A stretch of DNA of 64,000 nucleotides, taken from an uncultured Bacteroidota bacterium (GTDB taxonomy: Bacteria; CLD3; SB21). Numbering within the stretch: the stretch's first letter is position 1; each line of letters starts with the position of its first letter. The stretch spans positions 73,198 to 137,197 of the forward strand of contig CAZRTJ010000005.1 in assembly GCA_964602985.1 (NCBI GenBank), read 5' to 3'. The notes beneath the pieces were generated by a model. It was not told where the DNA came from and did not search any database. It saw only the letters and a list, made by a program, of their open reading frames with translations. A program made the position numbers and the translations under genes. Positions 27,737 through 52,248 of the stretch are shown here, piece by piece.

Positions 27737-30682
27737 TCAGCGGTTTCCTTCCAAACCCACGACCCATCGCAATTTCCAATGCGATTCGCCCGGGCCATTC
27801 CGATCCGGATGGGACACCCAGAAGGGAAATTCTGCGCGTACTCGATATGTACCGACCCACGCCGGCACGAGGGGAATTCGATAGGTCAATCCCACTCCCG
27901 CATCCTGCAGAAAGGAACGACGAAAAATGGCGGCATCGGCAAACAGAAAGGGTTGCGACTCCGTGAGCAGTAGAACGGAAGTCTTGAGGATGGACTTGAA
28001 TGGGTTGGACGTTGCGATCTCTCCGTTCACCGCGCCAAGCCACGTCGTTTGGAGGTTCGCTGTGTGATATCCGCTCAGACTTCCCTGCCCGTCCATGTAC
28101 CAATGACGCTGGCCTCGGTTCAACCACAACCGATCCGGTACTGTGCCGCGTGACCGGTAGAACGGACTTGCGAATTGTTCGCGCGGAGAGGCGCCGCTGA
28201 CGTAGAAGCGATCTTGGATGGGAATTTCTCCAAACGCAGCTCCCCCAAAAGCCCGAAGGGACGATTTGATGTGCCGGCCGCCCCCCGGGAGCGGGATCCT
28301 TGCCTCCCCTGTCATTTTCCAAAAAACCGACCGCGTGGATGGCAAGGGCAATTCCGCAGAGACCGACCATCTCGACCGGGCCGATCGTTTCCACGTCACT
28401 ACCAGACGTGAGGTGCGCTCCGAATTCCAGTTTGAGCCGATTGGCAAATACCCGGGCTCATCGAGGTCGTCAAACTGGATCTCCGCGGACAAATCATGAA
28501 TGGGAGAACTACGGAAGGTCGAGCCGTAGATTGTCTTCGAAACTCCGGTCCCGACATGTCGGCGGCCCTCCAGGCGGTATGCGTTTCCATATACCATCGT
28601 CTGCCTACCCCACGAATACACCGGTGTCGAATAGTGAAGTTCAAAGTCTGGTTTTTGAGAAGAAACTCCGTAGTACACACCAGCCCGCAAAGCATGATCC
28701 TTTTCGTCATAGCGGCCGCGCGACTTCCAACCGATGCGAAGCCGATCGAGTCGATTGTACCAAATGGACGGACGATGTTCGATGATATAACTCTCGATCG
28801 TCGCGGGGTATCGCACGGGCATCTGCCAATGGACGTCGAAGGGAACGTATGATGAATTGTTCAGCCGGTTCGTCTCGGGCAGTCGCTGGGTCGTGTCGAT
28901 GCGAACCTCCGAGACCGGTTCGTCCACAGGGATGAGAAACGCTCTGGAAGATTCATTTTGATCCCACTCATCGAGGACACGCAATCCGGAAGGGACCGGA
29001 TGCGTGCGGTGCAGAGGGACACGGAATCCGTACGTCAGGCCGGAACGACCACGAACATACACATCGACGGGCATTCGCAAATCCCCTCGCCGCGCGACCT
29101 GTACACGCACGTTCGGACCGGACGTGGATACGGAGGACAACTCGTAATCGCACGTCTGGGTCGTACGAAGCCACGACTCGAACATCCATTCCAGATTCGA
29201 ATTCAACCGACGTTCAAAAAAACTCCGCATCGTTTTGAGCGACACGTGACGACATCTGTACTCTGCAAAAAACTCTCTCATGCACTGATCCAGCGTGTCC
29301 CGTCCGAGCAAGTACTCCATCGCATTCATGAAGATCTGGCCTTTGTAATACGCACCGTACGAATACGACTCATCCGTCGCAAAGCTGTCGGCATGCGTCG
29401 TCGCGGGCTCTTCAAATCCTCCTTTGGCCCACTGCCGGTATCCGGTTATGGTTTTCACAAAAGCATCCTCTTTCGGAAAATGCTTCTTCTGGAAATCGCC
29501 CTCGTATTCCGACATGGCATAATTCCCAAACACGTGCTCCATGATCCGGGTCGTGTAGTACGAGGTAATGCCTTCATCAAACCAGGCGTCTTTCAGTTCG
29601 TTATTCGCCAGCATGCCTTGAAACCAGTTATGCACGATCTCGTGAGCCATGACACTGGCAAGCGAGAATTCGCCACGATTACCCGTGATGAACGTGAGCG
29701 TTGGATATTCCATGCCCCCGTCGCCGCCCTGGGCCACCGTCAGAATCGGATACGGGTAAGCTCCGACGTGATCTCTCATGTAGTGGAGAATCTTCGTTGC
29801 AAATTCACCGGCGCGTGACCACTTCCCGGCCACCTCGGCGGTATGCAGGAGCCGGACCGTCGTGCCGTCCACGTCGATCTCACGGACGAGGTACTGAGGG
29901 TCGGATCCCCACGCGAAGTCATGAACCGGGCTGGCCGTGTAAGTGTACGTCCGCGTCTGCACGGAATCCTGAATCTTCAACTGATCGGACCAGAAGCCCA
30001 AAATCCGATTCAGTCTGTCCAGCGCATCCGATCCACCGGACGGCCAGCCGGTCGCGCCGACCACGTACGGGGCAGGAACGGTGATCGACACGTCAAACGA
30101 TCCAAATTCTCCGTAAAATTCCCTCGCCAGATACGGTTCGCGGTGCCAACCCTCCTCGTCGTACGCGCAAATCCTGGGATACCATTGCGCCATGGTGTAT
30201 TCAATCCCCTCCCGGCTAACCCATCCCATCCTGCGAATCAGCGCCGGAACCTGAACCGCAAAATCCAGTTCGACGGTGACCGAATCGTCCGGTAACAGAT
30301 TGTGAGTCAATGGCACTGTGAGAATCGTTCCGGAAGTCCGGAAGGGAAGGGATTGTCCATCTGCGAGGCGCGCGGAAGTGACAATGTTCTTTCCATGAAG
30401 CGCCTCGGGGAGGGCATCGATCACGCTCCGGCCGTATCGACGGATTTGGTAGCGGTGCATGTCGCTGTTCCGTTGGAAGGCGTTGACGTAGAGGTGGAAA
30501 TGCAGTTCGCGCAATGTGTCCGGTGAATGATTGATGTAGGTCAGTCGCTCAATTCCCAGGACGAGGCGATGCGCCGGAAAAAGCCGACAGGCAATGGTCG
30601 TTCGAACTTCCTGCTGCCAGTCCGACTGTGCCACAAGATAATTTCCCGTAAACACGAGAAGCGACAACACCCCGCGCGTCAT
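27737..30682 (-). CDS. M1-family zinc metallopeptidase with a ~450-aa C-terminal beta-rich extension (possible outer-membrane barrel)
   Basis: Signal peptide; GGMEY (GAMEN variant); HEIVHNWFQGM...(18)...E gluzincin motif. The C-terminal half has alternating aromatic/hydrophilic beta-strand-like segments. Confidence 0.8.
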   Translation of the reverse strand: MTRGVLSLLVFTGNYLVAQSDWQQEVRTTIACRLFPAHRLVLGIERLTYINHSPDTLRELHFHLYVNAFQRNSDMHRYQIRRYGRSVIDALPEALHGKNIVTSARLADGQSLPFRTSGTILTVPLTHNLLPDDSVTVELDFAVQVPALIRRMGWVSREGIEYTMAQWYPRICAYDEEGWHREPYLAREFYGEFGSFDVSITVPAPYVVGATGWPSGGSDALDRLNRILGFWSDQLKIQDSVQTRTYTYTASPVHDFAWGSDPQYLVREIDVDGTTVRLLHTAEVAGKWSRAGEFATKILHYMRDHVGAYPYPILTVAQGGDGGMEYPTLTFITGNRGEFSLASVMAHEIVHNWFQGMLANNELKDAWFDEGITSYYTTRIMEHVFGNYAMSEYEGDFQKKHFPKEDAFVKTITGYRQWAKGGFEEPATTHADSFATDESYSYGAYYKGQIFMNAMEYLLGRDTLDQCMREFFAEYRCRHVSLKTMRSFFERRLNSNLEWMFESWLRTTQTCDYELSSVSTSGPNVRVQVARRGDLRMPVDVYVRGRSGLTYGFRVPLHRTHPVPSGLRVLDEWDQNESSRAFLIPVDEPVSEVRIDTTQRLPETNRLNNSSYVPFDVHWQMPVRYPATIESYIIEHRPSIWYNRLDRLRIGWKSRGRYDEKDHALRAGVYYGVSSQKPDFELHYSTPVYSWGRQTMVYGNAYRLEGRRHVGTGVSKTIYGSTFRSSPIHDLSAEIQFDDLDEPGYLPIGSNWNSERTSRLVVTWKRSARSRWSVSAELPLPSTRSVFWKMTGEARIPLPGGGRHIKSSLRAFGGAAFGEIPIQDRFYVSGASPREQFASPFYRSRGTVPDRLWLNRGQRHWYMDGQGSLSGYHTANLQTTWLGAVNGEIATSNPFKSILKTSVLLLTESQPFLFADAAIFRRSFLQDAGVGLTYRIPLVPAWVGTYRVRAEFPFWVSHPDRNGPGESHWKLRWVVGLEGNR

Positions 30683-30728
30683 CAGGCCAAGCGCAGATTG
30701 TCTGTAAAACCGTTCTGAATGCGGCGCT

Positions 30729-32801
30729 TCATCGAAGCTTCAGCGCTCCGGACTCCACGGCCGCATCCAGCAAACGGGTCACGTCATCCAGGGTAACGGA
30801 TCCATAATACCATTCTCCCTCACTGATCGACTCCGCACGGACGGCTTTGTAAATTTCGTAATACGATCGTTTTCCGTCGACAAAATTAAAGACCTCCTGC
30901 CTCATGATCGGATGCAACTTGGTTTCGACCGCGAGACGCTGACGAGCGGCGAAGTAGTCTTTCAAGGAGCTCGAATTCGACGGGATCTTGCGCGCGGCTA
31001 GCTCCTCCTCTTTCGTCGGTTTCCAGGGCTGATTGCTCGCACGACGGATAAAGACCAGCGCATCGTCATGTTGCTTTTGGAGATGCGCACGCACATCCGC
31101 GATTCGCTTATTGAAATCGCGGTCATTGACCGAAAATACCTGCGTGGACTCGATGGCCCGGAGACCGCGTTGCAGTGCCTGTTCCACGAGTAACTCCGCG
31201 TCCCGGATCGAGGCGGGATTTCGCACGATCATCTGAAGCGCGGTCTGCACGTCTCGACTGAAATGACGCGTGGCCTGTCCGTGGGTCACGGCCAGGATCA
31301 TGGGAGCCTGTGTCCCATCCGCGCGTCCGAGGACGTACGCGAGCGAGGCGATGATAAATGCGTTTCGCTCCAACTGCGTCGCGTCGATCTGCCACAGATC
31401 GTCGTCCGACGAATGAATGTACGAGTCATCCCAGTTGATCAAAGCCACAGCCGGCACCCCGATAATACCCTCGACGAAACACATGTTATCGGATGATCCA
31501 AAGTACGGAACGAAGGCGGCCGTGTATCCTTCCCGCGTACCCCGCGTCGCATAGATCGGCCTAGTGAACGGGCGCGGAAAGCCTCCCGAACGACTGGCGG
31601 CCAGAAAGGCCGTGTTCGTTTGGATCACATACATCCCGATGTCTTCGAAAAGCGCATCCAGATAGGAGCGTCGGCTGTGCGGCGCGTAAATCAGATGCTG
31701 CACACGACTCCCGGCGGACAGACGAGCGCCCACCATATCCTGGTGGAGATTGACGAGGAATTTCTTCGGTTCATCCGGATGCTCTTTGAACCACTCGTAT
31801 TCCGAATAGATTTCGTCGGTCCACCAAAATCGGATGTCGCGCAACGGGCGCTGCATTTTGCCCTCCTCGATCAGTTTCTTCATCGTGCGGCCGATCTCGA
31901 GGATATTTCCGCAGCCGCTGCCGTCGTCATTGGCGGAACCTTGTTCCTCCTGGAGGTGCGCGGTCAGGACAATCTGTTGGTCATGGTATTTTGTGCCACG
32001 GATCCACGCTTCGACAAATCCCGTTCGTCCGGGAGTGGCCGAAACTTCTGTTTCGATTCTGGCGCGCACGACCACTCGCCCCCCGCGGACCTTTTTCCCC
32101 ATGGCAAAAAAGTCTTTCGTTTCGTCGCTGTGCAGAAATTCCCGAAGGGTGTTCCCAAGTCGCGGGGAAATAGAAAAGGCAAACGTGGGTCGAGTGGAGT
32201 CGTACGGGATGCGTGTCCACGCTATCTGGTCCGGAAAATCCAACGGGGAGCGACCCTCGCTGGTTTCATACGAGATGACGCCGATGGCCCCTTGTTTCCA
32301 TACCGCCCGCCGAACCGCGCCGAATGCGCTCCGGCTGGTCAGTACGATCTTGCCGCGGAGGTCTGTGTCCATCCGGTTCCCGGCCTCTTCATCTCCGATC
32401 CACACCACTTCCGCCGTGGTATCGGCGCTGGAACTGCCATCTGCGAGGATCGTCGCATGATCGCCCAGGTCGGCGAGCTTCACCTCCATCGGTTCGACCA
32501 TCCACAATTCGGCTCGGCGCGCCGTGTAGTTGGGATGATTGAGTCTTTGTTCGATGAACTGTACGTCTTCGAGTCCGGCGGATTTGGCGGACTCCATGAT
32601 GTAGTCGGCGGCCTTGAAATATCCGTCCATGCCGGAATCTCGATGCCAACGGGACAGCACGCGAATGTGTTCAAACGAACGATCGCCGGAGAGTTCATTC
32701 ACCAGCATGTTGATTTCGTCGTTGTTGAGAAGTGCGGTCGACTGGGCCCACAGTCCCGCCGACAAGGACAGCCACAAACAAAGGCATGAGAGGAAGCGCA
32801 T
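30729..32801 (-). CDS. M28-family zinc peptidase with PA domain
   Basis: Signal peptide; AHLQEEQGSANDDGSGCG zinc-ligand region typical of M28; PA-domain-like insert. Confidence 0.8.
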   Translation of the reverse strand: MRFLSCLCLWLSLSAGLWAQSTALLNNDEINMLVNELSGDRSFEHIRVLSRWHRDSGMDGYFKAADYIMESAKSAGLEDVQFIEQRLNHPNYTARRAELWMVEPMEVKLADLGDHATILADGSSSADTTAEVVWIGDEEAGNRMDTDLRGKIVLTSRSAFGAVRRAVWKQGAIGVISYETSEGRSPLDFPDQIAWTRIPYDSTRPTFAFSISPRLGNTLREFLHSDETKDFFAMGKKVRGGRVVVRARIETEVSATPGRTGFVEAWIRGTKYHDQQIVLTAHLQEEQGSANDDGSGCGNILEIGRTMKKLIEEGKMQRPLRDIRFWWTDEIYSEYEWFKEHPDEPKKFLVNLHQDMVGARLSAGSRVQHLIYAPHSRRSYLDALFEDIGMYVIQTNTAFLAASRSGGFPRPFTRPIYATRGTREGYTAAFVPYFGSSDNMCFVEGIIGVPAVALINWDDSYIHSSDDDLWQIDATQLERNAFIIASLAYVLGRADGTQAPMILAVTHGQATRHFSRDVQTALQMIVRNPASIRDAELLVEQALQRGLRAIESTQVFSVNDRDFNKRIADVRAHLQKQHDDALVFIRRASNQPWKPTKEEELAARKIPSNSSSLKDYFAARQRLAVETKLHPIMRQEVFNFVDGKRSYYEIYKAVRAESISEGEWYYGSVTLDDVTRLLDAAVESGALKLR

Positions 32802-32811
32802 ACGATCTCCT

Positions 32812-33552
32812 TTATTTTTCCGTCAATTTGGAATGCAATTGAACCGGCGATTGAACCCTTTTCATTCGCAGATTGAGCATCTCCACCAGGATCGAAAACG
32901 CCATGGCAAAGTAGATGTATCCTTTGGAGATGTGCTGGTCCAGCCCTTCAGCGATGAGCGTGACGCCGATCAATAGCAGGAAGGCCAGGGCGAGCATCTT
33001 CACCGTCGGATGACCTTCGACAAAACGACTGATGGCGCCCGCAAAGATCATCATGAAGATCACTGCGATGACCACCGCCAGGATCATCACCATGATTTCA
33101 TTGGCCATTCCGACAGCCGTGATCACGGAATCGAGCGAGAAGACAATGTCCAGAAGGAGAATCTGGATGATCGTTCCGGCAAAAGACGCCGCGCCCTTTG
33201 CGGAATCCGATCCGTGAGGACCTTCCAATTTCGCGTGAATCTCGTGGGTGCTCTTTGCAAGGAGGAACAGACCGCCGATCAGTAGAATGAGATCACGACC
33301 GGAAATCTCCTGAGCGAGGACGGTGAATAAAGGATCGATGAGGCGCATGATCCAGGTCAAGGACATGAGCAAACCCACTCGGGTGACCATCGCCAGGGCC
33401 AGACCCAGCATTCGAGCGCGAGCCTGCTGTTCCGACGGCAGTTTGCCGCTGAGAATGGAGATGAAAATGATATTGTCGATGCCCAGTACGATTTCGAGCA
33501 CCGTCAACGTCAGCAGGGCGATCCACGATTCGGGTTGAGCGATCCATTCCAT
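32812..33552 (-). CDS. TerC-family integral membrane protein
   Basis: VLEIVLGIDNIIFISIL and the repeated TerC membrane motifs. Confidence 0.85.
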   Translation of the reverse strand: MEWIAQPESWIALLTLTVLEIVLGIDNIIFISILSGKLPSEQQARARMLGLALAMVTRVGLLMSLTWIMRLIDPLFTVLAQEISGRDLILLIGGLFLLAKSTHEIHAKLEGPHGSDSAKGAASFAGTIIQILLLDIVFSLDSVITAVGMANEIMVMILAVVIAVIFMMIFAGAISRFVEGHPTVKMLALAFLLLIGVTLIAEGLDQHISKGYIYFAMAFSILVEMLNLRMKRVQSPVQLHSKLTEK

Positions 33553-33614
33553 ACTTGACCTCGAGGGTTAGGATTTCGTCGATATGATGAAAATTGGGTT
33601 ATGACATTCTTGTT

Positions 33615-35327
33615 TCATCCGGCCACTTTTTTTACACGATATACGGCGATCGGCTGGTTGTATGTTTTCTCCAAAAAGTCCTCAGAGATCTTTTCGAATC
33701 GCAGGGACAGCCCGTAAAATTCAAGGCAGTATCGCTGCAGCAGGTCATTGTAATCGGGAGAGGACGCCAAGAGAAGTCTGGATTCGCTCCGTGCGGCGGC
33801 ACGCATGACATCCCCCAACGACGCACGACCCGAGAGGCGTTCTAGTCGGTCGCGAACGTAAGAATACCGTGTAGTCCAGCCCGAGCAAACGGTCACAGAG
33901 GTCTCGGGAGAATCCCAAAGAGACTTTCCGAAGACAGGGAACCCTGTCCACAGGTGCATCGCGTGGCCAATGAAAAGCAGATCAGCGCCTGGGTATTCGT
34001 TCTGCAAGAGCTGTAGCGTTTGCATGTTCACCTGGGCGCGTGATTTCAGGAAGGTCCGCTGCTGCGTCTGTCGCCAAGACGCGACCAGCAGAGTCGATCC
34101 CAGGATTGCCATGGCGAGTGCTCGCCCCAGGCGAGGAAAACGGGTGTGAGCCCGCGGACGGATCATGAAGAAGTGTCCCAATGTGTAAAGGACGATGGCG
34201 GGCTCCGCGACCCGATTTCGCATGCGAAGAAACACTTCGACTGTGCAAAGCAATATCCAGAATCCAACGTGATACGATGCATAAACCCCCGAGTGTTTCC
34301 AACGCCCTGTCTCGCCGCGAATACGGATCCAAAACATCCCCAGGAAAAGCACATTCAACCCAAGCACCAACATGTTGTTCTTGACCAACAGGCGAATCTG
34401 GCGAAAGAGAGAGTGCCCAATCGACTGCCACGCAATCGTCGGAACGCTCTCATCGATCCTCTGCTGCCATCCAGATAAGATTTCAGCCGTCAGAACATCG
34501 CGATCCCACATCACACCCTTAACCACCGACTCCTCGATCAGTTTGCTCCTCAGATCCTTTCCGATGGGATCTCTCGGTTGTACCGCATAATCGTTGATCG
34601 CGACAAGTGTCCGGTGATCCGTGGTGGAAATGGCGCGATCCAGCGGGAGCCATTGCAGGCTGAGGGACAGGACGTATAGGACGACTCCTGCCGGAATCAC
34701 CCGCCACGATGTGCGCACCCAATTACCCAAAATGACACTTCTGCAGACGGTCGCAAGAGCGATGATGAGGTATGCAAGCAGGACCGATTCCGGTCGGACC
34801 AGGAGAACGACGAAGACCAACCCCCATTGGGCGTATACACCAGGACCCCGGGCCTTCCACAAGAAGAGAATGGCGAATGCACTACCTGCGGTCAGGATGC
34901 AGACTCGTGTAAAGTTTAACAACACGACCGAGTTACCTGAAGCCAAGGTAGCCAGCACCAGCAGACCGAGCGCTTGCTGCCAGAAGGGAAATCGACTCTT
35001 GGTGGACATCAGAAAGACGTACGCGACATTTGCCAATCCGGAGGCTAGCATGGCATAGCAAAAAAGACCATACCAGGGAATTCCGGGAAGCATCTGATAC
35101 AGCCTGGCCATCACCTCGCCGACACCGTAAAACCAAAAACCGGTGCTTCCGACGGGTCGATCTAGAATGGCCCCACGCATCATGAGCTCAAACAGCGGAT
35201 CGTCCTGTGTTTCGAAATACAATCCGACCAGTGCACGGATCAGAACGATAACGACTACGGCCAGCGCAAACATCTGCACCCATGGCAGGCGAACGCCCAG
35301 AAACACTCCTTGCTCCGAACGCTTCAC
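33615..35327 (-). CDS. Large polytopic membrane protein of unknown function; last gene of the glycosylation-like operon
   Basis: More than 10 predicted TM segments. Its start overlaps the stop of the upstream gene by 4 nt. No recognisable family. Confidence 0.55.
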   Translation of the reverse strand: MKRSEQGVFLGVRLPWVQMFALAVVVIVLIRALVGLYFETQDDPLFELMMRGAILDRPVGSTGFWFYGVGEVMARLYQMLPGIPWYGLFCYAMLASGLANVAYVFLMSTKSRFPFWQQALGLLVLATLASGNSVVLLNFTRVCILTAGSAFAILFLWKARGPGVYAQWGLVFVVLLVRPESVLLAYLIIALATVCRSVILGNWVRTSWRVIPAGVVLYVLSLSLQWLPLDRAISTTDHRTLVAINDYAVQPRDPIGKDLRSKLIEESVVKGVMWDRDVLTAEILSGWQQRIDESVPTIAWQSIGHSLFRQIRLLVKNNMLVLGLNVLFLGMFWIRIRGETGRWKHSGVYASYHVGFWILLCTVEVFLRMRNRVAEPAIVLYTLGHFFMIRPRAHTRFPRLGRALAMAILGSTLLVASWRQTQQRTFLKSRAQVNMQTLQLLQNEYPGADLLFIGHAMHLWTGFPVFGKSLWDSPETSVTVCSGWTTRYSYVRDRLERLSGRASLGDVMRAAARSESRLLLASSPDYNDLLQRYCLEFYGLSLRFEKISEDFLEKTYNQPIAVYRVKKVAG

Positions 35328-37348
35328 TTCCGCCTCAGGATTTGAATGCCGCTGTCCAAAAAGGCGGGCTCCAGCATGGTCTGCCAGTCAAAATGCAGTG
35401 AATCGGTCGATCTCAGGTAGATATACTCGATGTCGTAATTCACGAGGATGGCCTGGGCGCTGTCCAAAGAGCGCGTGTCGTAAAACGTGTGAACATCGCG
35501 GCGCACTCGCGACAGGCGCTCCATGTAGGGTTTGTCCTTTTCAGCGAAAGCAAAAACATAGGCCACGCCTTCGGTGACAACGGGTTTTCTCGAAAAGACT
35601 TGCACAGCCATATACGATTCGTCACCCGGCTCAGAGAGATCGTAGTATTTCGTGAGAATGCGCCCCTGCCCCGGAGCGGTGCGAAGAAATTCAAAGCTCT
35701 TCATCGTCGCGCGGTCCAGGATCAGGCGGGTGCCCGATGCACCGTTGAGTCCGACGACTGCAAACGACCAGACGCCGGATAACATCAAGAGCAGGGAGAC
35801 ACCGGCCCAACAACGAGGCACCCATCCCTTCCGAGAAAAAAACGAAGAGAGTCGCTCGACGGAGTAGATATTCAAGATGAAGATGATTAAAAGAAAAAAC
35901 CACATCGAATCGTGTTTACGCAATTCGTTGGCCGTGAGAACGAATGCTCCCATACCGCCAAGAATGCTGAAAAGAAGAAATGTGTGGCCATCCGGTTGAT
36001 GAGCGATATTGCGCAATCTCATCCGGGAAATGAAATAGGACAGACCCAGCCAGCGGAAGTGAAGCAGGCCGAGGTAGTAAACAAGGAGGGTCAGAACAAA
36101 CCATCCGACGCCCTTCATCGACTGGGGAAATCCATGTTGAACCACTTCGGCACGGAGACTTTCACTGATCAAATGAGAGCGAACGCCAAAGTTTAGTGGA
36201 AAGAACCATTCGGAAAAGCGAACACCGTTGCGAGCCTCTGATGCAGAGTCCCAGAAGATAGGTATGCTGAGAATCACGACCCATCCGGCAAGCAACAGCA
36301 TGTGACGGCGCCGGAATCGAACTACTTGCAGAACCGCGACCACGCATAACGCCGACACACCGACAAGAAAGGCCGTAATCTTTGCCTTGATCATGAAAAC
36401 CCAGCCGATCAAGCACAGGAAGAACCAGAGTTTGGCGGGCTGTCGATCATAGAGAATCGTGGTTCCGCACAGCCCGCAGAATAGTCCCGTAGAAAAAAGA
36501 TAAGAGGGATTGTGAAAGAGCTGAAACTGCGTGATGATCGGGGTCCACACCGACAGAAAAGTCGGATACCCGGATCCGAACCACGCTTCGCCTTCCACCA
36601 CCACTCCACGAACCCACAAAATCAGCGCCGAAGGATCGAAACAGAACAATGTCACAAAAACGGCACCGAGCGCAATGCGGTGGCGGTTCCAAAGTAGTCG
36701 GGTCAAACCGTACACATGAATCGCCAGCATCATCATGCAAAGCGGAACAAAAAAATAAACGTACAGAACAAAATGGTTGGTCACACCAGCGGACGATGAA
36801 AACAAGTGAATAAAGAGATTGGCAAAATAGTGGTAATGACTCCGATCCGCAGGAACGGCATGAATCGTCTGAGGAAGCACGTCATAGTCCAAGTCCGCGA
36901 CGATTGTCAGATGGTGCATCACCTCGGTTGCAAACAGGTCGTAGGCCTCCAGCCGGTCTCCTGTTAAGCCGTTCCGGAATAGATAAGGCGTGATTCCCAC
37001 AAAGAACGCAAGAATCAACACGCCAAAGACTGCGGACCGGAAATGTACCAGCTTCCAGAAGAAGCCTCCAAAAATCGCAAACGTTCTGTTCGTGCGACAT
37101 TGAATGAGAACAATCGTCAGAACGACACCCGGCACACCCACCACGCACAACAGCGCCGCCACCGGCGACGGCAAGAAAAACCGGAGGATCCAATACAGTG
37201 TGGTGGAACCCACGACGGCAATCGTGAGTGACACGGACAAGATCGTGCCGGCCGGAACATCCAGATTTCTGGTCAGGTACACACATGCAGCCAGGCAACA
37301 AGCCGTCAGGAACAGAAAGAAGACATAAGGTAGGATGGACTCAGCCAT
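35324..37348 (-). CDS. Polytopic membrane protein with ~200-aa C-terminal soluble domain; paralogue of 38620-40560; putative GT-C-type glycosyltransferase
   Basis: Shares with its paralogue EVMHHL, Y(H/Y)FFANxFI, YVYFFxP, QFQxxNNPSYL and KAKITxFL. Start chosen at MAESILPYVFF, which couples to the small upstream ORF. Confidence 0.6.
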   Translation of the reverse strand: MAESILPYVFFLFLTACCLAACVYLTRNLDVPAGTILSVSLTIAVVGSTTLYWILRFFLPSPVAALLCVVGVPGVVLTIVLIQCRTNRTFAIFGGFFWKLVHFRSAVFGVLILAFFVGITPYLFRNGLTGDRLEAYDLFATEVMHHLTIVADLDYDVLPQTIHAVPADRSHYHYFANLFIHLFSSSAGVTNHFVLYVYFFVPLCMMMLAIHVYGLTRLLWNRHRIALGAVFVTLFCFDPSALILWVRGVVVEGEAWFGSGYPTFLSVWTPIITQFQLFHNPSYLFSTGLFCGLCGTTILYDRQPAKLWFFLCLIGWVFMIKAKITAFLVGVSALCVVAVLQVVRFRRRHMLLLAGWVVILSIPIFWDSASEARNGVRFSEWFFPLNFGVRSHLISESLRAEVVQHGFPQSMKGVGWFVLTLLVYYLGLLHFRWLGLSYFISRMRLRNIAHQPDGHTFLLFSILGGMGAFVLTANELRKHDSMWFFLLIIFILNIYSVERLSSFFSRKGWVPRCWAGVSLLLMLSGVWSFAVVGLNGASGTRLILDRATMKSFEFLRTAPGQGRILTKYYDLSEPGDESYMAVQVFSRKPVVTEGVAYVFAFAEKDKPYMERLSRVRRDVHTFYDTRSLDSAQAILVNYDIEYIYLRSTDSLHFDWQTMLEPAFLDSGIQILRRK

Positions 37349-37637
37349 GAAGGTTGGATCTTGTGATATGTCCGGCTTGTCGCAATCCCGTAAGACCAAT
37401 CGCGGAGACGATGCCCGCACCGGCAATGCCGGCGAGTAGGCCTGTCAGGGATCCCGCCAGAGACCCGGCCAACGCACCAGCCACCAGCCAGCACAAAGCG
37501 CCGAGCGTTAACATGTGAAGTGTCCGGCGTGAGGGCGAAACAACGAGCAGGACCACTCCCACCATGCAGTACAAAACGACACCCAGGACAACACAAGTCA
37601 CCCATACCCCATCCGCCGTCAGATACTTTCCAATCAC
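37341..37637 (-). CDS. Small two-TM glycine-zipper membrane protein
   Basis: GTG start overlapping the upstream stop. AGALAGSLAGSLTGLLAGIAGAGIVSAIGLTG is a GxxxG zipper. Weak; could be a frame artefact. Confidence 0.4.
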   Translation of the reverse strand: MIGKYLTADGVWVTCVVLGVVLYCMVGVVLLVVSPSRRTLHMLTLGALCWLVAGALAGSLAGSLTGLLAGIAGAGIVSAIGLTGLRQAGHITRSNLHG

Positions 37638-38623
37638 TTCGACACCGACAGTATTTTCCTGATCAGGTCCGCATCGTTGGGCAGCAGGCCCGCCTCAGTC
37701 AGCCGTGATACCAGGATCGCCCAATTTTTGTCTTTGGAAAAAATCTCCTTGAAAATCGGAAGAGATTCATCCAGACGCTTCATGTTCACCAACGAAACGG
37801 CGTACCAAAATTTCATTTCCAGATTGTCCGGAAACATCTTCTGTGCGGCCAGGTATTCTGCGAGCGCCTGTTCTTCGTTGTGATTTTCCACGGCCAGATC
37901 TCCGGCGTTCATGTGCTCGTAGGCTTCGTGTACTCGGAGGAGTCGGCGCAATTCCCGCAGCGGTTCGGCATGATCCTCAACGCGAAGTTCCATCACGCGA
38001 TCGGCCCACGGCCGGCCCGTCGAGCGACTCTTGACAATCAGGATCGCCGCGGATTGTTTTCCGCGGATATCTCCTCCTGCTCCCTCTGCGGCCTCCAAGG
38101 CTCGCATCAGGCGTTCGGCCAGCGGACCGTTTGCGGATTCGTACGCCTGCGACATCGCGCCCCAAATTCTGTCATTGAGCATCAGATTTGCTTGGACCGC
38201 GTACCCGCGTCCAACGATATGCCCGGCCGATGCAATGCAATTCCTCCCCGTGTGTACGGCCACATTCCCCTGTGCATCCACCATCGCGACCTGCCGAACG
38301 TCGCGCCCCGGATCCCCCGCCACCAGCGATTCCAGCGCCTGATTTGCGGTTTTGCCTGCTCGCATCAACTCCAATCCCAGCTTGCCGTACGAAGGATCGA
38401 CAAACGACTGAGTCGCGACGGCGCCCACTCCCGCTTCCGCCCAGGTGACCAGCGATCCCACAGAGAACCAGTGCGACTGGACGGCCACTCCCATTTCCCC
38501 GGTCACGGAGTCCCTGGCAACGATCGAGTATGTGTGAATGGGACGGAGGGAACTTTGAGCGAGCAAGTCGCAGGTGAGAGCGATCGTCAAACAGAACACA
38601 CGCATAGGAAGTCCTTTCGTCAT
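37634..38623 (-). CDS. Secreted DUF1028-family (Ntn-hydrolase-like) protein
   Basis: Signal peptide, then TYSIVARD..., the characteristic start of DUF1028 proteins. ATGA overlap with the upstream gene. Confidence 0.7.
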   Translation of the reverse strand: MTKGLPMRVFCLTIALTCDLLAQSSLRPIHTYSIVARDSVTGEMGVAVQSHWFSVGSLVTWAEAGVGAVATQSFVDPSYGKLGLELMRAGKTANQALESLVAGDPGRDVRQVAMVDAQGNVAVHTGRNCIASAGHIVGRGYAVQANLMLNDRIWGAMSQAYESANGPLAERLMRALEAAEGAGGDIRGKQSAAILIVKSRSTGRPWADRVMELRVEDHAEPLRELRRLLRVHEAYEHMNAGDLAVENHNEEQALAEYLAAQKMFPDNLEMKFWYAVSLVNMKRLDESLPIFKEIFSKDKNWAILVSRLTEAGLLPNDADLIRKILSVSK

Positions 38624-40560
38624 GGTCTAATCTCATACAGTCGAACGGTCGGACCGGCATACCTCATCGACCACGTCGACAGCGGTTGAAAATGCAGCGG
38701 AGCATCCGCCGTTTCCATCACAAGTGAAACGTCGTATTTTTTCAAAATAGCTGCTGCGCCGGCGCTGTCCTGCGTTGCAAAAAAATAATCTGCGTCTTCA
38801 CGGGCCTCCTTCAGCACACGAATTTGGTCGCCAGACAAGAGCGGCTCATAGTACGTGGATTGTTCGGCCACCAGCCGTTTTTCCGAATACACCCCGTTCA
38901 GAATGTTCGGCATGGTAGAGTCTGTGTGAAAAAGGAATCGTCCGGTGGACTCGTATGTGCGCGCCGCACCCAGGGCCTGCATATGGTCTGCGGAATACGT
39001 GTACGAGCCGCGTCTGACGCTCTTGCGCAGAACCGGCACCGCAAAGGTCAGCATCGACGATATCATGAGCAGCGCCCCACCCGCAAGCACCCATCTGCGA
39101 CCGCTGAGTTGCCGCCACCGCCGCACGGCATACGCCGACAGAATGGGCATGAGGCCCAAATAGAACCACATAGAATCGAACACCACAAGCTGATTAACAA
39201 TCAGTACAAACGCGCCCAGACCCGCCAAAATAGAGACCAGGCTGAGTCGATGCGGCGAATCGGAAAATAGCATACGCAGGATGAATCGCCAATCCGTCCG
39301 AAGGAACGCCAATGCGCGAAATCCGAGCAATCCTGCGTGCCACAGCGGAAATAGAATCACAAATTTCGTCATCTGCATGGCGTCGGTGATCACGCCGCGT
39401 TGGCGTAACTCCTGAATGGCCGCCGCAGACAACAACCCGAATTTCTGTGCAAATTCAGCCACGAAGAATCCGTTTGAGAATTGAACCTCATGATGTCCGT
39501 ACGATCCGGTCAGTTGAAGAATTCCAAAAAAAAGTGTGACGAGTCCGGCCAGGGTCATCGTGACTACCTGCCTTCTTCTCCACATGTCCACGCCCGCCAC
39601 CCACAACAATCCGGCAAATGCAGGAAGAAACGTAGTGATCTTTGCCTTCAACAAGACCAACCAGAGAATGAGCGTGACCGCAAAGACAAATGCGGAACGG
39701 TTCCTTTGCATCTGCCAGGTTGACAAGAACACGGCTGGAAGCAACGCGATGGAAGTAAGGTAAGAAGGATTGTTGTACTGCTGAAAAAACGTAATCACAG
39801 GATACCAAATCGACCAAGCCATCATCTTGTAGGAATTCATCCACACGAACAGACTTGAAACATCATACACCAGCCAGACAACCAGTACGGTCCAAAATGC
39901 CACCCTCATGTCTCTCCACAACGCCACACAAAACGCTGCTGAATTGACACCGAGAAGGAGCAGGAAGACAGGAGTGAAAAAGTACACGTACGCATACACC
40001 TTGTCCAGGGCAGGAAGCGAGTAACTGAACGCGCTGATAAAGTAGTTCGCGAAGAAGTGATACTCCGATCGATCATACTGCGTGACATCCATGGTCACAG
40101 GCCACGATTGCACGTTGATCTGGGTCACCAGGGCCAAATGATGCATGACCTCTTTCGCCACAATGTCCACCAGCCGCAGGTTGCCAGAGTCGTCATAACC
40201 ATTTTGTCCGATGTAAAAGCCGGCGATGAGGAAGAATGTCAGGGCAGCCAGGACGAATGGCAAACACTGCCGAAGAAATCTCCCCGCAAACACTTCCAAC
40301 AGTGCGCGTCGTTTGCGGAAAGCGCTCGCCGCAGAAATGACTGTCAGCAAACCCAACATCCCCACTACGATCCAGCGCGGACAATAGGTAATTCGAAGAA
40401 CAAAATAGACCACGACAATTGCGACTGTCGCAAGCGTCAGGCTGAGCGCCAGGTGTTCAGCGCGGCCTCCCTTCCATCGACCTCGCAGAAATGCGACGAT
40501 TCCAAGAAACCAAAGACCCAGCACCAGATAACAAACGCCTACCCAGAACCACACCGACAT
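38620..40560 (-). CDS. Polytopic membrane protein with C-terminal soluble domain; paralogue of 35324-37348; putative GT-C-type glycosyltransferase
   Basis: Start at MSVWFWVGV, overlapping the GT2 stop (TGATG). Conserved blocks are shared with its paralogue. The ORF-track N-terminus (46 aa, Ala/Gly/Asp-rich) is rejected. Confidence 0.6.
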   Translation of the reverse strand: MSVWFWVGVCYLVLGLWFLGIVAFLRGRWKGGRAEHLALSLTLATVAIVVVYFVLRITYCPRWIVVGMLGLLTVISAASAFRKRRALLEVFAGRFLRQCLPFVLAALTFFLIAGFYIGQNGYDDSGNLRLVDIVAKEVMHHLALVTQINVQSWPVTMDVTQYDRSEYHFFANYFISAFSYSLPALDKVYAYVYFFTPVFLLLLGVNSAAFCVALWRDMRVAFWTVLVVWLVYDVSSLFVWMNSYKMMAWSIWYPVITFFQQYNNPSYLTSIALLPAVFLSTWQMQRNRSAFVFAVTLILWLVLLKAKITTFLPAFAGLLWVAGVDMWRRRQVVTMTLAGLVTLFFGILQLTGSYGHHEVQFSNGFFVAEFAQKFGLLSAAAIQELRQRGVITDAMQMTKFVILFPLWHAGLLGFRALAFLRTDWRFILRMLFSDSPHRLSLVSILAGLGAFVLIVNQLVVFDSMWFYLGLMPILSAYAVRRWRQLSGRRWVLAGGALLMISSMLTFAVPVLRKSVRRGSYTYSADHMQALGAARTYESTGRFLFHTDSTMPNILNGVYSEKRLVAEQSTYYEPLLSGDQIRVLKEAREDADYFFATQDSAGAAAILKKYDVSLVMETADAPLHFQPLSTWSMRYAGPTVRLYEIRP

Positions 40561-41495
40561 CACCGGACTTCGTCGATGATGTACGGGGGTCGGCGACGCA
40601 CCTGATCCAGGGCACGCCACAGATACTCTCCAATCACGCCAAGCATCAGCATCTGAAGCCCCGACAAGAGCAGGATCAACACCATCAGCGGCGCCCACCC
40701 TTCAAAAGGCACGTTGCCAAACAACCGGTTGTACACGATCACCAAGGCATAGACAAATCCACACACGGCGGTGATCAATCCCGTCACCGACATAACCCGC
40801 AATGGCACATACGAATACCCCATCACACCGTCCAGCAGGTACTTCACCTTCATGCCAAACCTCCAGCGGGACTTGCCGTACGGTCGATCCAGCCGCTTAT
40901 ACGGAATCATCTTTCTCTTGAATCCGCTCCAAAGAATCTGGCCCTGAAAAAAGGGATTGGACTCGGGATTATCCAGCATCATGCGCACGACACGCTCTCC
41001 CAGAAGCATATAATCAAAACCGCCCGCGGGCATGTCCGGAAAGCTCAGCCTTCGCATCAGCATATAGAATACTCTTGATGTCCACCGCCGAAACACCGTC
41101 TCCTCCCGATCCGCGCGCGAACAAATCACCACGTCGTATCCCTCTTCGAAGTGACACTGCAGCATTTGCACAATCAACTCCGGCGGATCCTGCAAATCCG
41201 CCGAAATAGTCACGACGCATTTGCCCCTCGCATGCGCAAATCCGGCCATCAGCGCCGAGACCTGTCCGAAATTCCTCGTGAAGCGAATCACCGTGACCCA
41301 ATCCGGATGCTCGTTCTTAATCTCCAGAATCCTGGAATACGACTGATCCCCCGACCCGTCATCGATCAGTACAATCTGACAGGACCGCGAGGGCTGGAGG
41401 GAAATCACCTCACGGACGATCTTGTCGAAGGTTAACCGAATCGACTCTTCGTTATAATAGACGGGAATGATGATGGAGTAATCGACTTTTTCCAC
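40560..41495 (-). CDS. Family-2 glycosyltransferase of the polyprenyl-phosphate sugar transferase type (ArnC/GtrB/DPM1-like) with C-terminal TM helices
   Basis: YSIIIPVYNEE, DDGSGD, SADLQDPPE, and two C-terminal TM helices, which is the typical undecaprenyl-phosphate GT2 layout. Confidence 0.85.
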   Translation of the reverse strand: MEKVDYSIIIPVYYNEESIRLTFDKIVREVISLQPSRSCQIVLIDDGSGDQSYSRILEIKNEHPDWVTVIRFTRNFGQVSALMAGFAHARGKCVVTISADLQDPPELIVQMLQCHFEEGYDVVICSRADREETVFRRWTSRVFYMLMRRLSFPDMPAGGFDYMLLGERVVRMMLDNPESNPFFQGQILWSGFKRKMIPYKRLDRPYGKSRWRFGMKVKYLLDGVMGYSYVPLRVMSVTGLITAVCGFVYALVIVYNRLFGNVPFEGWAPLMVLILLLSGLQMLMLGVIGEYLWRALDQVRRRPPYIIDEVR

Positions 41496-41500
41496 GGCTC

Positions 41501-42637
41501 TCAGGCGTTCTTGCGATTCTTCATCGACCCGATCATTTCGCAGATCGCATCGACGTGAGGGAGCGAAAGATTGCCGTACATGGGAAGACAGAGAACTTGC
41601 TTCGCCACGCGCTCCGCCACCGGTAATCGACCGGGCGCGGCAGACGGCAATTCCCGATACGGTGGAAAGTGACTGATCAACGGATAAAAGTAGCGGCGTG
41701 AATACACGTTGTTCGTTTTGAGTCGATCGTACACGGCGTCCCGATCGGCTCCAAAGATCGCGGGATCGATGAGAATCGGAAAGTAGGAATGATTGTGCGA
41801 CACCTTGGGGAGATCGCCGAGGACGCGCACACCATCCAGTCCGGACAGATTCTCCCGGTACCGGGCCGCCACAGCTCGTCGACGATCCACTTCGCCGCGA
41901 AATCTCTCCATCTGCAAGAGACCCATGATCGCCTGAAATTCGTTCATCTTGGCATTAATGCCCACACTGACAACCGACGTCTCACCTGCGAATCCAAAGT
42001 TTTTCAGATAATCGATCCGTTGCTTGAGTTTTTCGTCCCCATGTACAATCGCCCCGCCCTCAAATGTCTGGAACACTTTCGTCGCATGGAAACTCAGAAT
42101 GCTCATATCGCCGTGGCGGAGTATGGACTTCCCGTCCACTGTCACCCCGAACGCGTGCGCGGCATCGTACAGGACTCGCAGTCCATAGATGTCGGCGATC
42201 CTTTGAATCTCTTCCACCCGGCACGGATTTCCGTACACATGCACCGGCAGGATTCCCGTCGTTTGATTGGTGATCAGGGATTCCACCTTCGTGGCGTCCA
42301 GGTTAAACGTCTGCTCTTCAATATCGCAGAATACCGGAGTGATCCCGTTCCAATGAAGGGAATGCGTGGTGGCCACGAAGCTGAACGGCGTGGTAATCAC
42401 CTCCCCCGTCATCCGCAACGCCTTCAGGCCAAGAAGGAGCGCCAACGTCCCATTGCTGAACAGATTCAGATACGGTACGCCGAGAAATTCAAGGAGTTTC
42501 TCCTCCAGTTGAACGTGATACGCGCCGTTGTTGGTGAGGATCTTGGACTTCCACAGTGTCTCCAGATGCGGAAGGACGGACTCCAACGGCGGAAGATCCG
42601 GTTCCGTGACATAAATCGGATGGTCGAACTTTGGCAT
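41501..42637 (-). CDS. DegT/DnrJ/EryC1/StrS-family PLP-dependent sugar aminotransferase
   Basis: Family hallmarks including the SFHATK lysine region. Start at MPKFDHPIYVTEP; the upstream 20 aa in the ORF track are unlikely to be translated. Confidence 0.8.
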   Translation of the reverse strand: MPKFDHPIYVTEPDLPPLESVLPHLETLWKSKILTNNGAYHVQLEEKLLEFLGVPYLNLFSNGTLALLLGLKALRMTGEVITTPFSFVATTHSLHWNGITPVFCDIEEQTFNLDATKVESLITNQTTGILPVHVYGNPCRVEEIQRIADIYGLRVLYDAAHAFGVTVDGKSILRHGDMSILSFHATKVFQTFEGGAIVHGDEKLKQRIDYLKNFGFAGETSVVSVGINAKMNEFQAIMGLLQMERFRGEVDRRRAVAARYRENLSGLDGVRVLGDLPKVSHNHSYFPILIDPAIFGADRDAVYDRLKTNNVYSRRYFYPLISHFPPYRELPSAAPGRLPVAERVAKQVLCLPMYGNLSLPHVDAICEMIGSMKNRKNA

Positions 42638-42814
42638 GCGTGATTGAACAGCGATTGAAACTTGCGTAGAGTAGGAAATTTTTCCGCCGAGTTCCAATGA
42701 AAAGTGCCGACCCGGTCTGCGACGAGATTGCTGGAAGCGGTGTACACGGTCTGACCTGAAGCGGCTGGTCTTCAGCGAACAGGGCCCACACCGCCAGCCT
42801 GAACGATGGAACTG

Positions 42815-45800
42815 CTAAAAATCCGCGCCAAACCAGAATTGAAAGAAGATTCCCTTCGACCAGCGCCGGTATTCACGCAACGTCTCCTCGTCCAGCCGGC
42901 CGCCAAAACCCAGGTCCCCGGTTTCCTTCAACTTCGTCGCGATAAATCGATCCCGATTGCCCGGCAGTCTAATGCCGAACACCTCTGCGTCGCGTGCGTC
43001 AAACATTTTTCCGAAATCAAATCGCAGGACAATAAATCCCAGCATGTTCACTCGAAACCCCGTCCCCACGCTCCCGATCAATCCGTCGAAATTGACATGA
43101 TCGACCACAACCGCTCCATCCGTAATCTGCGACCCCCACGCACTGCCGATATCCATGAACGCCGCGCCACGGATTCCGCGAAAGCCCAGTCCGCCAAACG
43201 GCAATTTCAAACTGATCACATCGACGAGTGGAAATCGAAGTTCCTGATTCACGACAAAGAACCGAGAGCCCGGCAGATTCCATCGTGGATATCCGCGCAG
43301 GTCCCAACTGCCGCCGAGAATGAAATTCTGCGGGTTCTTCCCCTCGTTCCACTGCACCATCGACCGCATCGCATACGTCGAACGGCTCGTGAGCCGAACA
43401 TACTTTCGATAATCCAGGATGACCGTGTAGTAATTCTGCTGCGATCGTTGAACGTCGCTCGTATATCCGCCGGAAACGGTGAAGCGATTCCCATCGATCG
43501 GCCCGGTGATCCCCCACAGCGCGTTGTCGTACGTGTAGCCGCCGAAGTTGCTCAGGATCAAGCCGTCCACGGGCAACACCTGACCGAACACGCTTTCCCG
43601 CCGATACTTGCTGAAATTCAACGACGACTCCAGCCGCTGGAAACGCGAGATCGGATAGACCACCTGGAGAAATCCGCCGAATCGATTTTGATCGACTTGT
43701 GCGATGTCGCCCACGTCGTCGATCTCGATAAAATCACCGCGGAAACGATAAAATCCGTACGCGAAATTGACCCGCTTCCCCAAATCCACTTTTGTCAGGA
43801 CAAGATTCCAATTGGTCAGCAGTTGAGACGTCGTTCGGGAGGTGTTAAAGACTAGGAGATAGTACTGCTGATCACCGAGCACGTCGGTCACTCCGACGAG
43901 ACCGCCGCCGCCATTCCCAAAAACCGGATCGACGTGAAAGGAACCCTGCACAAAGTCGAGGCCGTAGCGCTTGGAGTAGGGCCGTGCGGCTACACCTTCC
44001 GCCGCCACACGGGGCGTGGACCACAAGGTTTTCGCGGCAAGGGTCTCTACGTTCGCCGGTTGCGTGGCTTCGGCCTTGGCGCGGGCATTCGGCAACCGCC
44101 GAATTTGAAATCCGAATTTTTCAAACGTCGTCAGGATGATGTCCCCGTTGCGCGTCCACACCGGATCGAATCCAGCCGCCGTCAGTCGGACCAGTTCGCG
44201 CCCACGAAACGCGCTCAGCGAATCTCCCGCCTCGGCCGCATCGACAAAGTTCTTGTCGCCAGTGACAAACGGCAACACCCACAGGTCCGTCGGCTCCCCC
44301 GGTCGGTTCGACGTATACGCCAGCCATCGCCCGTCGCGCGACCAGGAGGGCGCGTCATCCCGCGTCCGACCCGCCGTCAAAGCAAACATCTTCATCGTGC
44401 CGACATCGCATAGATAGAGATTGTACGCACCCATCAGACCTTCTTCTGTACGATCCGACGAAAAGGCGATCCATCGACCGTCCGGACTCCACGCGGGCTC
44501 CTTGTCGTCGTACATATCGTTGGTTAGGCGGGTGAGACGCCCGTCTTCGGAATCGCCGGTCACTTCGAGAATATACAGGTCCGAATTGCCGCTCATCGCC
44601 AGCCCCGAGAACACAATCCTCTTGCAGTCCGGCGACCAGTTGGGCGAGGACAATCCGACCAGATCCTTATAGGAGTACCGATGCGTGACGGTCTTGCGGT
44701 TCACGTCGTACACATGCAGGACATCCTTCTCGCCGCTCTTGGTCACAAAGGCCAATTCACCCCTGGCATTGATGTCAATCTTGCTCTTGAAGAAATGAAA
44801 CGTTTCAAAATCTTCGGAGCGCTCGCCTTTGATGACGATTTCCTCCTTCTTCGTGTCCAGTCGATTGCGATAGATGTTCGTATATCCGTCGCGATTGGCA
44901 ACATAGAAGACCTCCTCGATGCCGTCGTGTTCCCAGTACGCCGGCTTCACGTGAAAACCTGCCGGACTGATTTTTTCCGTGATCGCCCCGGGTTCTTCGC
45001 GATTGGCCAGCGTCGGGAAGTATTTCTTTTTCAACCACTGCATCCAGCGTTCCGTCAATTCCTCATACGACACGCCGAGCGACAGGGCGACGACTTTTTC
45101 AAACGACTCGGTCTTCCACAGGTTGTCCAGGATCAACATAACTTTTTCGGAACCGAACGATTCGGAGACAAACTGGAGGAGATTCTCGCTCAACTTGTAC
45201 ATGTAGTACGTCCCCTGCACCGTCCAGAAATTCTGCACGGGCACGACGGTCCCATTGATCGTTGCATCGCGCATGACCATTTCCGCCTGGAAGTCCGGTT
45301 GTCCGCTCCAGTGTTCGGCGATTCCCTCGGTAAACCACAGGGGCGCGCCGGGATGGTTCAGCTTTCGATGCTCGGAGAGTATGCGCTCCATTTTGTACGT
45401 GGCAAATACGTGCACCAGTTCGTGCCGAAGCACGCGTCGAAACGCGTGAATCGATCCATCGCTTGGCAGTACGACGCGCCCTTTGAAGAACTCGAAGAAT
45501 CCGCCGACGCCCTCCGGAATCTCAAACGGCGACACATTCGTCTGCTGAAAATGCAGGTGCGAGCTGTAGACGATCATGGGCACCTTGCTCTTGAGCGAGT
45601 AGTTGAACAGATTTTGTAACTCCGCGTACTGCTCCTCGGCGAATCCCGCCGCCCGCTCCGCCAGTTCCTTCATTTCCGGATAATAATAGATCTCGAAATG
45701 CTCCGTCTCGAGCACCTGCCAGTGGAATCGCGTGTAATTGACCTTGTTCGTACCGAAGTAGTTGTCGTAATACTGCCCGTGCAACGCTGTGGTCAGCCAG

Positions 45801-46620: not shown

Positions 46621-46721
46621 GCGGCTAAGATAGCACCGACCTTTCTCCCAAGTCAAGATACGGATGCAAATCAACCCGTTTAGGGTATGCGTGGGTCAGC
46701 CGGTAGCAACCCCTGCATGTG

Positions 46722-46743
46722 GGTGTGCCGCGCGGCTTTTTTT
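46722..46743 (+). terminator. Orphan intrinsic terminator (GCCGCGCGGC plus T7) with no upstream plus-strand gene
   Basis: A self-complementary GC decamer preceded by GTGGGTGT and followed by 7 T, ~75 nt upstream of the M64 peptidase ATG. Confidence 0.45.
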
Positions 46744-52247: not shown

Positions 52248-52248
52248 T

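Follow-up and report, generated by a model that had tools for sequence, protein, structure and literature searches.

A rare predicted GT-C family and a strain-variable cassette in a probable amino-sugar glycosylation operon of an uncultured Bacteroidota bacterium

We analysed a 64-kb stretch of DNA from an uncultured Bacteroidota bacterium (contig CAZRTJ010000005.1; hereafter, the window), centering on a minus-strand operon at 33615-42637 with seven tightly coupled genes. These encode, in order, a DegT-family sugar aminotransferase (DegT), a polyprenyl-phosphate glycosyltransferase of family GT2, a large membrane protein (M1), a DUF1028 protein, a small membrane protein (p98), a second large membrane protein (M2) and a third polytopic membrane protein (M3). 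Collectively, the evidence makes it probable, though well short of certain, that the operon specifies a three-component-type system for extracytoplasmic amino-sugar glycosylation, in which the acceptor is of the surface-polysaccharide or lipopolysaccharide (LPS) type and an exchangeable gene cassette sets strain-specific linkages. This reading draws on the predicted glycosyltransferase fold of M1 and M2, the nature of the DegT and GT2 enzymes, and a sharply bounded cassette that exchanges half of the operon between strains, the last being a new finding beyond an initial annotation made from the sequence alone.

M1 and M2 prove to be paralogous along their whole length (31% identity, E 1e-66), as the initial annotation had claimed, and M1, M2, M3 and p98 match no Pfam or NCBIfam family, in agreement with its view that the putative transferases lie outside the named GT-C families. 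Structure comparison revealed that the fold of M1, its C-terminal domain included, is closest to the oligosaccharyltransferase AglB/STT3 and not to ArnT; PIG-M, Pmt4, AftD and PglB ranked lower. M1, and by homology M2, matches solved GT-C enzymes across the transmembrane core, and the periplasmic C-terminal globular domain of M1 has the AglB core fold. Searches of PDB sequences with full-length profiles of M3 and of the family to which M1 and M2 belong (the M family) gave no match; the isolated C-terminal domain profile of the M family reached AglB. The earlier GT-C interpretation of the large membrane proteins is thus retained for M1 by fold and for M2 by homology, whereas the nearest fold is that of AglB/STT3 rather than ArnT.

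Hydropathy and charge counts were used to orient M1 in the membrane. The loop at residues 121-186 is acidic (eight D/E versus three K/R) and is flanked by short K/R-rich loops, and was therefore assigned to the periplasmic side; this long conserved loop, which carries E137, H141, Y167 and H168, and the C-terminal domain both fall on that side. E137 is invariant in all 12 close members of the M family and is replaced by D in distant members, and H141 is invariant among the close members only. Across 35 family members, Y167 is invariant and H168 is conserved in at least 90%. Judging from this conservation, the four positions are putative catalytic-loop residues.

M1 and M2 miss two defining features of oligosaccharyltransferases, namely a match to the STT3 profile and the WWDYG motif, which in these enzymes binds the +2 Ser/Thr of the sequon. 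None of the 35 M-family members carries any Pfam domain, STT3 (PF02516) included; a single member of this set gave a faint AglB_core-like match (E 0.0089), and no WWD was present in any aligned member. In the region of that motif, where the structural equivalence of the position is approximate, the family pattern is [KR]YYD...DExN...GKPVVxEG. M2 carries KYYDL and keeps the C-terminal family motif KYYDL...KPVVTEG; M1 carries FHTDS and is more degenerate. Furthermore, the YfhO profile (PF09586) matched neither M1, M2 and M3 nor any of the 35 family members, and M1, M2 and M3 also fell outside the ArnT/PMT_2 family (PF02366/PF13231). M2, which is 39-46% identical to M-family proteins on other contigs, is the typical member, with a GT-C fold by homology; M1, whose periplasmic C-terminal domain resembles that of AglB, is a divergent paralog specific to this lineage. 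On the modeled structure, M1, and by homology M2, is a GT-C enzyme whose nearest relatives are oligosaccharyltransferases, and the conserved adjacency to GtrB/ArnC-type GT2 genes suggests that both use a polyprenyl-phosphate-linked donor.

The M family is very rare. An exhaustive HMMER search of 1.84 billion cluster representatives with an M1 plus M2 profile retrieved 46 proteins at E<=1e-3, 18 of them at E<=1e-30. Pattern scans identified three M-family loci among 185,579 GTDB species genomes, all in metagenome-assembled genomes of Bacteroidota, and one locus in the JGI metagenome collection. Because viral contigs contained no M-family relatives, there was no sign of phage-borne seroconversion. 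Word-indexed homolog searches (with M1, M3 or a five-sequence M3 profile) returned the query alone and missed even the paralog within the window.

Comparison with a contig from another metagenome (L001) delineated the variable cassette. By blastn, L001 was 97.8% identical to window positions 37602-50566 and 99.4% identical to positions 28734-33537, and no nucleotide match was detected for the intervening 33538-37601. At positions 12960-17137, L001 instead encodes p89, an 89-residue counterpart of p98 (51% identity), together with an M3-like protein (24% to M3) and an M2-like protein (34% to M2), the order of the M3 and M2 genes being reversed. At the left breakpoint, identity falls from approximately 100% to approximately 45% within a few bases past codon 12 of p98; at the right breakpoint, it resumes at the fifth codon of the downstream terC-family gene. 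Over most of its length, the part of the operon that both strains share shows 98.6-99.8% identity between them, and DegT, GT2, M1 and the DUF1028 protein are 97-99% identical at the protein level. The GC content of the cassette is unremarkable.

The window allele recurs on three other contigs (99.99-100% identity). A contig from SRR34141491 (L002), of the other allele type, ends exactly at the left breakpoint (window position 37602), as expected where an assembly graph forks between coexisting alleles. The transferase pair thus exists as two alleles within a single near-clonal population. Against a background of 98-100%, identity to L001 also dips at 47500-47999 (90.6%), 44500-45499 (94-96%), 42500-42999 (95%) and 38000-38499 (95.4%); these dips, which include the intergenic region upstream of the DegT gene and part of the DUF1028 gene, suggest a mosaic recombination history. 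The sharp allelic replacement of p98-M2-M3 points to selection for surface diversity.

We then assigned the two enzymes expected to supply the donor. DegT matches PF01041 (4.6e-95) and retains the PLP (pyridoxal phosphate)-binding lysine within the sequence SFHATKVF. Its best NCBIfam match is DesI (1.5e-96), albeit at 324 bits against a cut-off of 650; the ArnB model NF008658 gave 152 bits against an equivalog cut-off of 631. The PDB ranking was similar, with DesI (2po3, 3.1e-72) ahead of perosamine synthases (1e-43) and ArnB (1e-30). DesI is a dTDP-4-keto-6-deoxyglucose 4-aminotransferase, and DesI and the perosamine synthases are all 4-aminotransferases of 4-keto-6-deoxy sugars. DegT is thus probably a 4-aminotransferase acting on a nucleoside diphosphate (NDP)-4-keto-6-deoxyhexose, and known family specificities indicate that its product is most likely an NDP-4-amino-4,6-dideoxyhexose. 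The GT2 protein matches PF00535 (4.7e-25), possesses two C-terminal transmembrane helices at approximately residues 230-292 by hydropathy, and carries the subfamily-typical ADLQDPPE motif (SADLQDPPE in the translation). Full-length PDB matches were obtained to the GtrB protein sll0501 (5ekp, 2.6e-57, residues 4-309) and to ArnC (1.7e-44). The best NCBIfam match was PgfS (2.3e-61), followed by ArnC (2.8e-52; NF007986, 178 bits against a cut-off of 529). As both scores lie under the equivalog cut-offs, the protein is a member of the GtrB/ArnC enzyme type and not an ortholog of PgfS or ArnC.

We fetched loci of M-family members in other genomes (L-numbered in Table 1) and searched them for both membrane-protein families with hidden Markov models and for the remaining operon proteins with BLASTP. 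An ArnC/GtrB-like GT2 of 307-317 residues was present in all eight close-family contexts with enough flanking sequence, and a DegT gene in most M-family contexts; in 7 of 10 independent contexts, the M-family gene has an M3-family gene as its immediate neighbor. In L011, the last DegT and the last GT2 are orthologs of the window DegT (66% identity) and GT2 (60%), and between them lies a PglD-like N-acetyltransferase, consistent with a 4-amino sugar. The association of DegT, GT2, M and M3 thus recurs on unrelated contigs, so the DegT/GT2 pair does not belong to an ordinary O-antigen cluster with unrelated neighbors elsewhere, the outcome that the initial annotation had named as a refutation. 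An ordinary O-antigen cluster was likewise ruled out for the window itself, whose 64 kb contain no other glycan-synthesis genes, and we regard the operon as a self-standing module rather than a fragment of such a cluster. The exact gene order that includes the DUF1028 protein, the small peptide and TerC was not kept elsewhere: in the fetched loci, these three accompany the module in the window's own lineage only, and TerC adjoins M-family genes in no other lineage.

LPG_synthase_TM proteins (PF03706) accompany GT2 in two of the related loci (L009, 4088-5005; L011, 17696-18461) and may be the flippase in loci of this type; the window operon has no equivalent. More remote M-family members, which score E 1e-8 to 1e-17 against the profile (L020, 5156-7285 and neighbors, and L019, 3299-5416), sit in other glycan loci. 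One, with an AsnC regulator close by, is flanked by a short GT2, a YdjC deacetylase and a Wzx-type flippase, an arrangement resembling an archaeal agl cluster; the other adjoins DegT and NeuB/CMP-sugar genes.

The gene map was derived from a six-frame list of open reading frames (ORFs) with inspection of start codons (Table 1). It reproduced every gene, every overlap and the 62-nt gap before TerC in the initial annotation. M3, which we considered as a possible third paralog of M1 and M2, showed no relation to them by BLASTP or by family-versus-family profile comparison (hhalign), and the idea was dropped. All seven operon proteins are also called as genes on independent public contigs, and hence the ORFs are real genes rather than chance ORFs. 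Gene callers favor a start at 38605 for the DUF1028 gene, giving 323 residues. TerC is possibly co-transcribed with the operon. A promoter and terminator scan of the locus performed no better than shuffled sequences, and Rfam and tRNA scans were empty, with no yybP-ykoY riboswitch before TerC.

Table 1 Genes of the operon, the variable cassette and gene orders of related loci (coordinates refer to the window)
Feature or locus	Position	Strand	Details
DegT-family PLP sugar aminotransferase	41501-42637	-	378 aa
GtrB/ArnC-type polyprenyl-phosphate glycosyltransferase (GT2)	40560-41495	-	311 aa; 5-nt gap after DegT
M1, predicted GT-C-fold membrane glycosyltransferase, unnamed family	38620-40560	-	646 aa; TGATG overlap
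DUF1028 (Ntn-hydrolase-like) protein	37634-38623	-	329 aa; ATGA overlap
p98, small Gly/Ala-rich membrane protein	37341-37637	-	98 aa; GTGA overlap
M2, M1 paralog	35324-37348	-	674 aa; 8-nt overlap
M3, polytopic membrane protein, second unnamed family	33615-35327	-	570 aa; GTGA overlap
TerC-family membrane protein	32812-33552	-	62 nt downstream of M3; PF03741 6.2e-48
Strain-variable allelic cassette	33538-37601	.	rest of p98, M2, M3 and spacer before TerC
L011			GT2-GNAT-(methyltransferase)-DegT-M3-M-DegT-PglD-like acetyltransferase-GT2
L014/L021			GT2-GNAT-(methyltransferase)-DegT-M3-M-GT2-SDR-oxidoreductase-acetyltransferase
L009			LPG_synthase_TM-GT2-acetyltransferase-M3-DegT-M
L015			GT2-M3-M3-M-PMT_2-GT1-Wzy_C-GT4
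L008 and L010			minimal M-GT2 pairs

M3 is characterized by an acidic ETQDD motif directly after its first transmembrane helix and by a periplasmic C-terminal alpha/beta domain, and is tentatively assigned to the GT-C enzymes from a model. The DUF1028 protein matches PF06267 at residues 31-225 (1.6e-72) and PDB entry 2imh (3.7e-19); weak TPR matches at 234-302 delineate a C-terminal TPR region. Its N-terminus is hydrophobic at residues 4-22 and signal-like, Thr31 corresponds to position 1 of the family model, and the gene is translationally coupled on both sides. A literature search on DUF1028 found no functional account; speculatively, the periplasmic protein could carry out amidase-like processing of the sugar N-substituent or of the acceptor. 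The small p98 protein has two to three transmembrane helices and is rich in Gly and Ala.

We propose the following scheme for the operon. In the cytoplasm, DegT would convert an NDP-4-keto-6-deoxyhexose, made by a dehydratase encoded outside the window, into an NDP-4-amino-4,6-dideoxyhexose. GT2 would then place the amino sugar on undecaprenyl phosphate (Und-P), a step in which the enzyme family follows from sequence and the substrate is presumed. The lipid-linked sugar would be flipped, with p98 a weak candidate for this role, and at the periplasmic face M1, M2 and probably M3 would move the sugar onto a cell-envelope acceptor. That acceptor is probably a surface polysaccharide or an LPS-type glycan, on which each transferase would modify a different position; we favor this choice since the exchange between strains affects the transferase pair alone. 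The conserved half, DegT-GT2-M1-DUF1028, would provide the donor supply and one fixed modification, and the exchangeable p98-M2-M3 would set strain-specific linkages, like serotype-specific GtrC beside conserved GtrA/B (PMC11127046). The ArnB-ArnC-ArnT logic of the initial annotation persists in this scheme as an amino-sugar nucleotide loaded onto Und-P by an ArnC/GtrB-type GT2 and transferred by a GT-C enzyme; the operon is nevertheless no Arn system, as its proteins score below the equivalog cut-offs.

Several observations weigh against this scheme. Pfam and NCBIfam searches of the operon revealed no recognizable flippase (GtrA, ArnE/F, Wzx, SMR or MATE), and the window yielded no 4,6-dehydratase, which would have to act ahead of DegT. 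Acceptor-glycan genes were found nowhere in the 64 kb, so the acceptor is a guess. Three transferases for a single donor exceed the needs of the classical Gtr scheme, and the GT-C assignment of M3 is tentative: its model, built from a nine-sequence alignment, has low confidence (predicted local distance difference test score, pLDDT, 62) and gave no significant Foldseek match in the PDB. Moreover, because M1 is structurally nearest to protein oligosaccharyltransferases, a protein acceptor is favored over a polysaccharide on this point. M1 and M2 could accordingly be degenerate AglB/STT3-type enzymes that glycosylate periplasmic or surface proteins with an Und-P-linked amino sugar in a PgfS/PgfM1- or Ppm1/Pmt-like manner; the AglB/STT3 relationship of M1 and the PgfS-like GT2 (PMC12041528) speak for this, and the attachment site would be non-canonical given that the sequon-reading WWDYG is missing. 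We consider it an unlikely but serious competitor. A bolder proposal, which we likewise regard as doubtful, is that the M family constitutes a hitherto unnoticed bacterial offshoot of archaeal AglB-type oligosaccharyltransferases that lost WWDYG, moves single amino sugars from Und-monophosphate, forms an obligate pair with M3 and travels as a mobile allelic glyco-specificity cassette, through which near-clonal Bacteroidota-like strains would come to differ in a surface glycoconjugate, possibly by a new type of protein glycosylation.

In an Arn/Flm-like modification of lipid A or the LPS core, a cationic amino sugar would lower the surface charge and confer resistance to cationic peptides. This is improbable here: the ArnB and ArnC cut-offs are missed by a wide margin (DegT, 152 versus 631 bits; GT2, 178 versus 529 bits), DegT is nearer to the 6-deoxyhexose 4-aminotransferases, and Pfam analysis of the operon and its flanking genes detected no ArnA, ArnD or ArnE/F, absences already pointed out in the initial annotation. 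Moreover, three transferases, two of them swapped between near-identical strains, are hard to square with a conserved lipid A target, and the sugar is probably N-acetylated in the related loci. The three GT-C proteins might otherwise build an amino-sugar oligomer or polymer from one Und-P-sugar, one priming and the others elongating or branching in an AftA/Emb-like fashion. We find this distinctly improbable, since the M3 model is of low confidence, minimal loci with only M and GT2 exist (L008, L010), and L011 provides two donor sets for two GT-C proteins, which suggests one sugar per transferase. Finally, M1, M2 and M3 belong to no sequence family and the fold of M3 is uncertain, so that the large membrane proteins might be transporters, Wzy/WaaL-type polymerases or ligases, or acyltransferases that lie beside DegT and GT2 by coincidence. 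On the M1 structure comparison, we rejected transporters and Wzy/WaaL proteins as identities for the M proteins, and with the non-glycosyltransferase explanation largely refuted for M1 and M2, we give it very little credence.

The flanks of the operon encode, by Pfam, peptidases, an Omp85 fusion protein, cytochromes and similar proteins. Directly upstream of the operon, the gene at 42815-45823 (minus strand) encodes 1002 residues with a Peptidase_MA_2 domain, PD40/Tricorn-like beta-propeller repeats and a C-terminal Omp85 barrel, and looks like an unusual outer-membrane protease fusion. Secreted metallopeptidases abound in the window (M1 peptidase, 27737-30682; M28, 30729-32801; M64, 46664-48103), and a full-length bacterial homolog of angiotensin-converting enzyme lies at 15072-16883 on the minus strand (Peptidase_M2, 2.1e-107). 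A 2319-residue protein at 7467-14426 (minus strand), with a Laminin_G_3 domain, beta-helix/NosD repeats and a C-terminal FlgD_ig-like domain, may be the type IX secretion system cargo to which the initial annotation alluded. MtrC/MtrF-like and c554-type multihaem cytochromes, a molybdopterin oxidoreductase and an NrfD-type membrane subunit are encoded at 364-2712 (minus), 52132-52860 (plus), 49267-51570 (plus) and 54413-55699 (plus), a set that suggests anaerobic or extracellular respiration in this organism.

Our analysis defines two uncharacterized membrane families without Pfam models, one confidently and the other tentatively of the GT-C type, as candidates for new CAZy families, for which GT136 is a recent precedent (PMC11127046). 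The M family connects bacterial three-component glycan modification with the AglB/STT3 oligosaccharyltransferase lineage, and, as an AglB/STT3 scaffold minus WWDYG, bears on the evolution of acceptor specificity among GT-C enzymes. The p98-M2-M3 replacement offers a clean natural example of how surface glycans may diversify among the strains of an uncultured lineage, and the cassette could mark strains and phage or predator pressure in metagenomes. The significance is limited by the great rarity of the M family and by the familiarity of the logic that joins a lipid-linked sugar to a GT-C enzyme.

Among known systems, GtrA/GtrB/GtrC glucosylation of O-antigen, which underlies seroconversion in Shigella and Salmonella and has been reviewed with other three-component periplasmic systems (PMC11127046), offers a close parallel. 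In both, on the scheme proposed here, a GtrB-type GT2 with a C-terminal transmembrane hairpin makes an Und-P-monosaccharide and a GT-C enzyme finishes the transfer outside the cytoplasm; in both, the donor genes are conserved between strains and the GT-C genes are strain-specific, the p98-M2-M3 replacements being 24-51% identical. The window operon differs in its predicted amino-sugar donor, hence the DegT gene inside it; in having no GtrA-type flippase, p98 lacking a family match; in three putative GT-C proteins, from two families without Pfam models, instead of one; and in a chromosomal location without phage context. Unlike ArnB/ArnC/ArnT, its proteins fall below all Arn equivalog cut-offs, its DegT is nearer to DesI and perosamine synthases, and its transferases are approximately 100-130 residues longer, with an AglB-like C-terminal domain.

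Compared to AglB/STT3/PglB (CAZy GT66), especially the short A. fulgidus AglB-S1/S2, the M family has neither an STT3 Pfam match nor WWDYG, with [KR]YYD or xFD in that region; it is tied to a monosaccharide Und-P synthase rather than an oligosaccharide assembly line, and carries approximately three extra N-terminal transmembrane helices before the catalytic loop. Protein O-glycosylation by PgfS/PgfM1/PgfE/PgfM2 in Streptococcus mutans (PMC12041528) and CsbB/GtcA/YfhO teichoic-acid glycosylation (PMC7389260) likewise combine a GT2 with two GT-C paralogs in one operon, PgfS being the best NCBIfam match of the window GT2. However, M1, M2 and M3 do not match PF09586, the YfhO family that includes PgfM1, PgfM2 and YfhO, and both systems are Gram-positive, use N-acetylhexosamine or glucose donors and have no aminotransferase. 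Mycobacterial AftA-D and EmbA-C, which use decaprenyl-phosphate-arabinose, have no sequence relationship to the M proteins and differ in donor chemistry. Collectively, the three-component logic of a lipid-linked sugar and a GT-C enzyme is already well known, and the operon is not a YfhO, PMT_2 or canonical oligosaccharyltransferase system; its new elements are two membrane families without Pfam models, of which one is related to AglB yet devoid of WWDYG, the conserved pairing of these families, a predicted amino-sugar donor and a sharply bounded allelic cassette.

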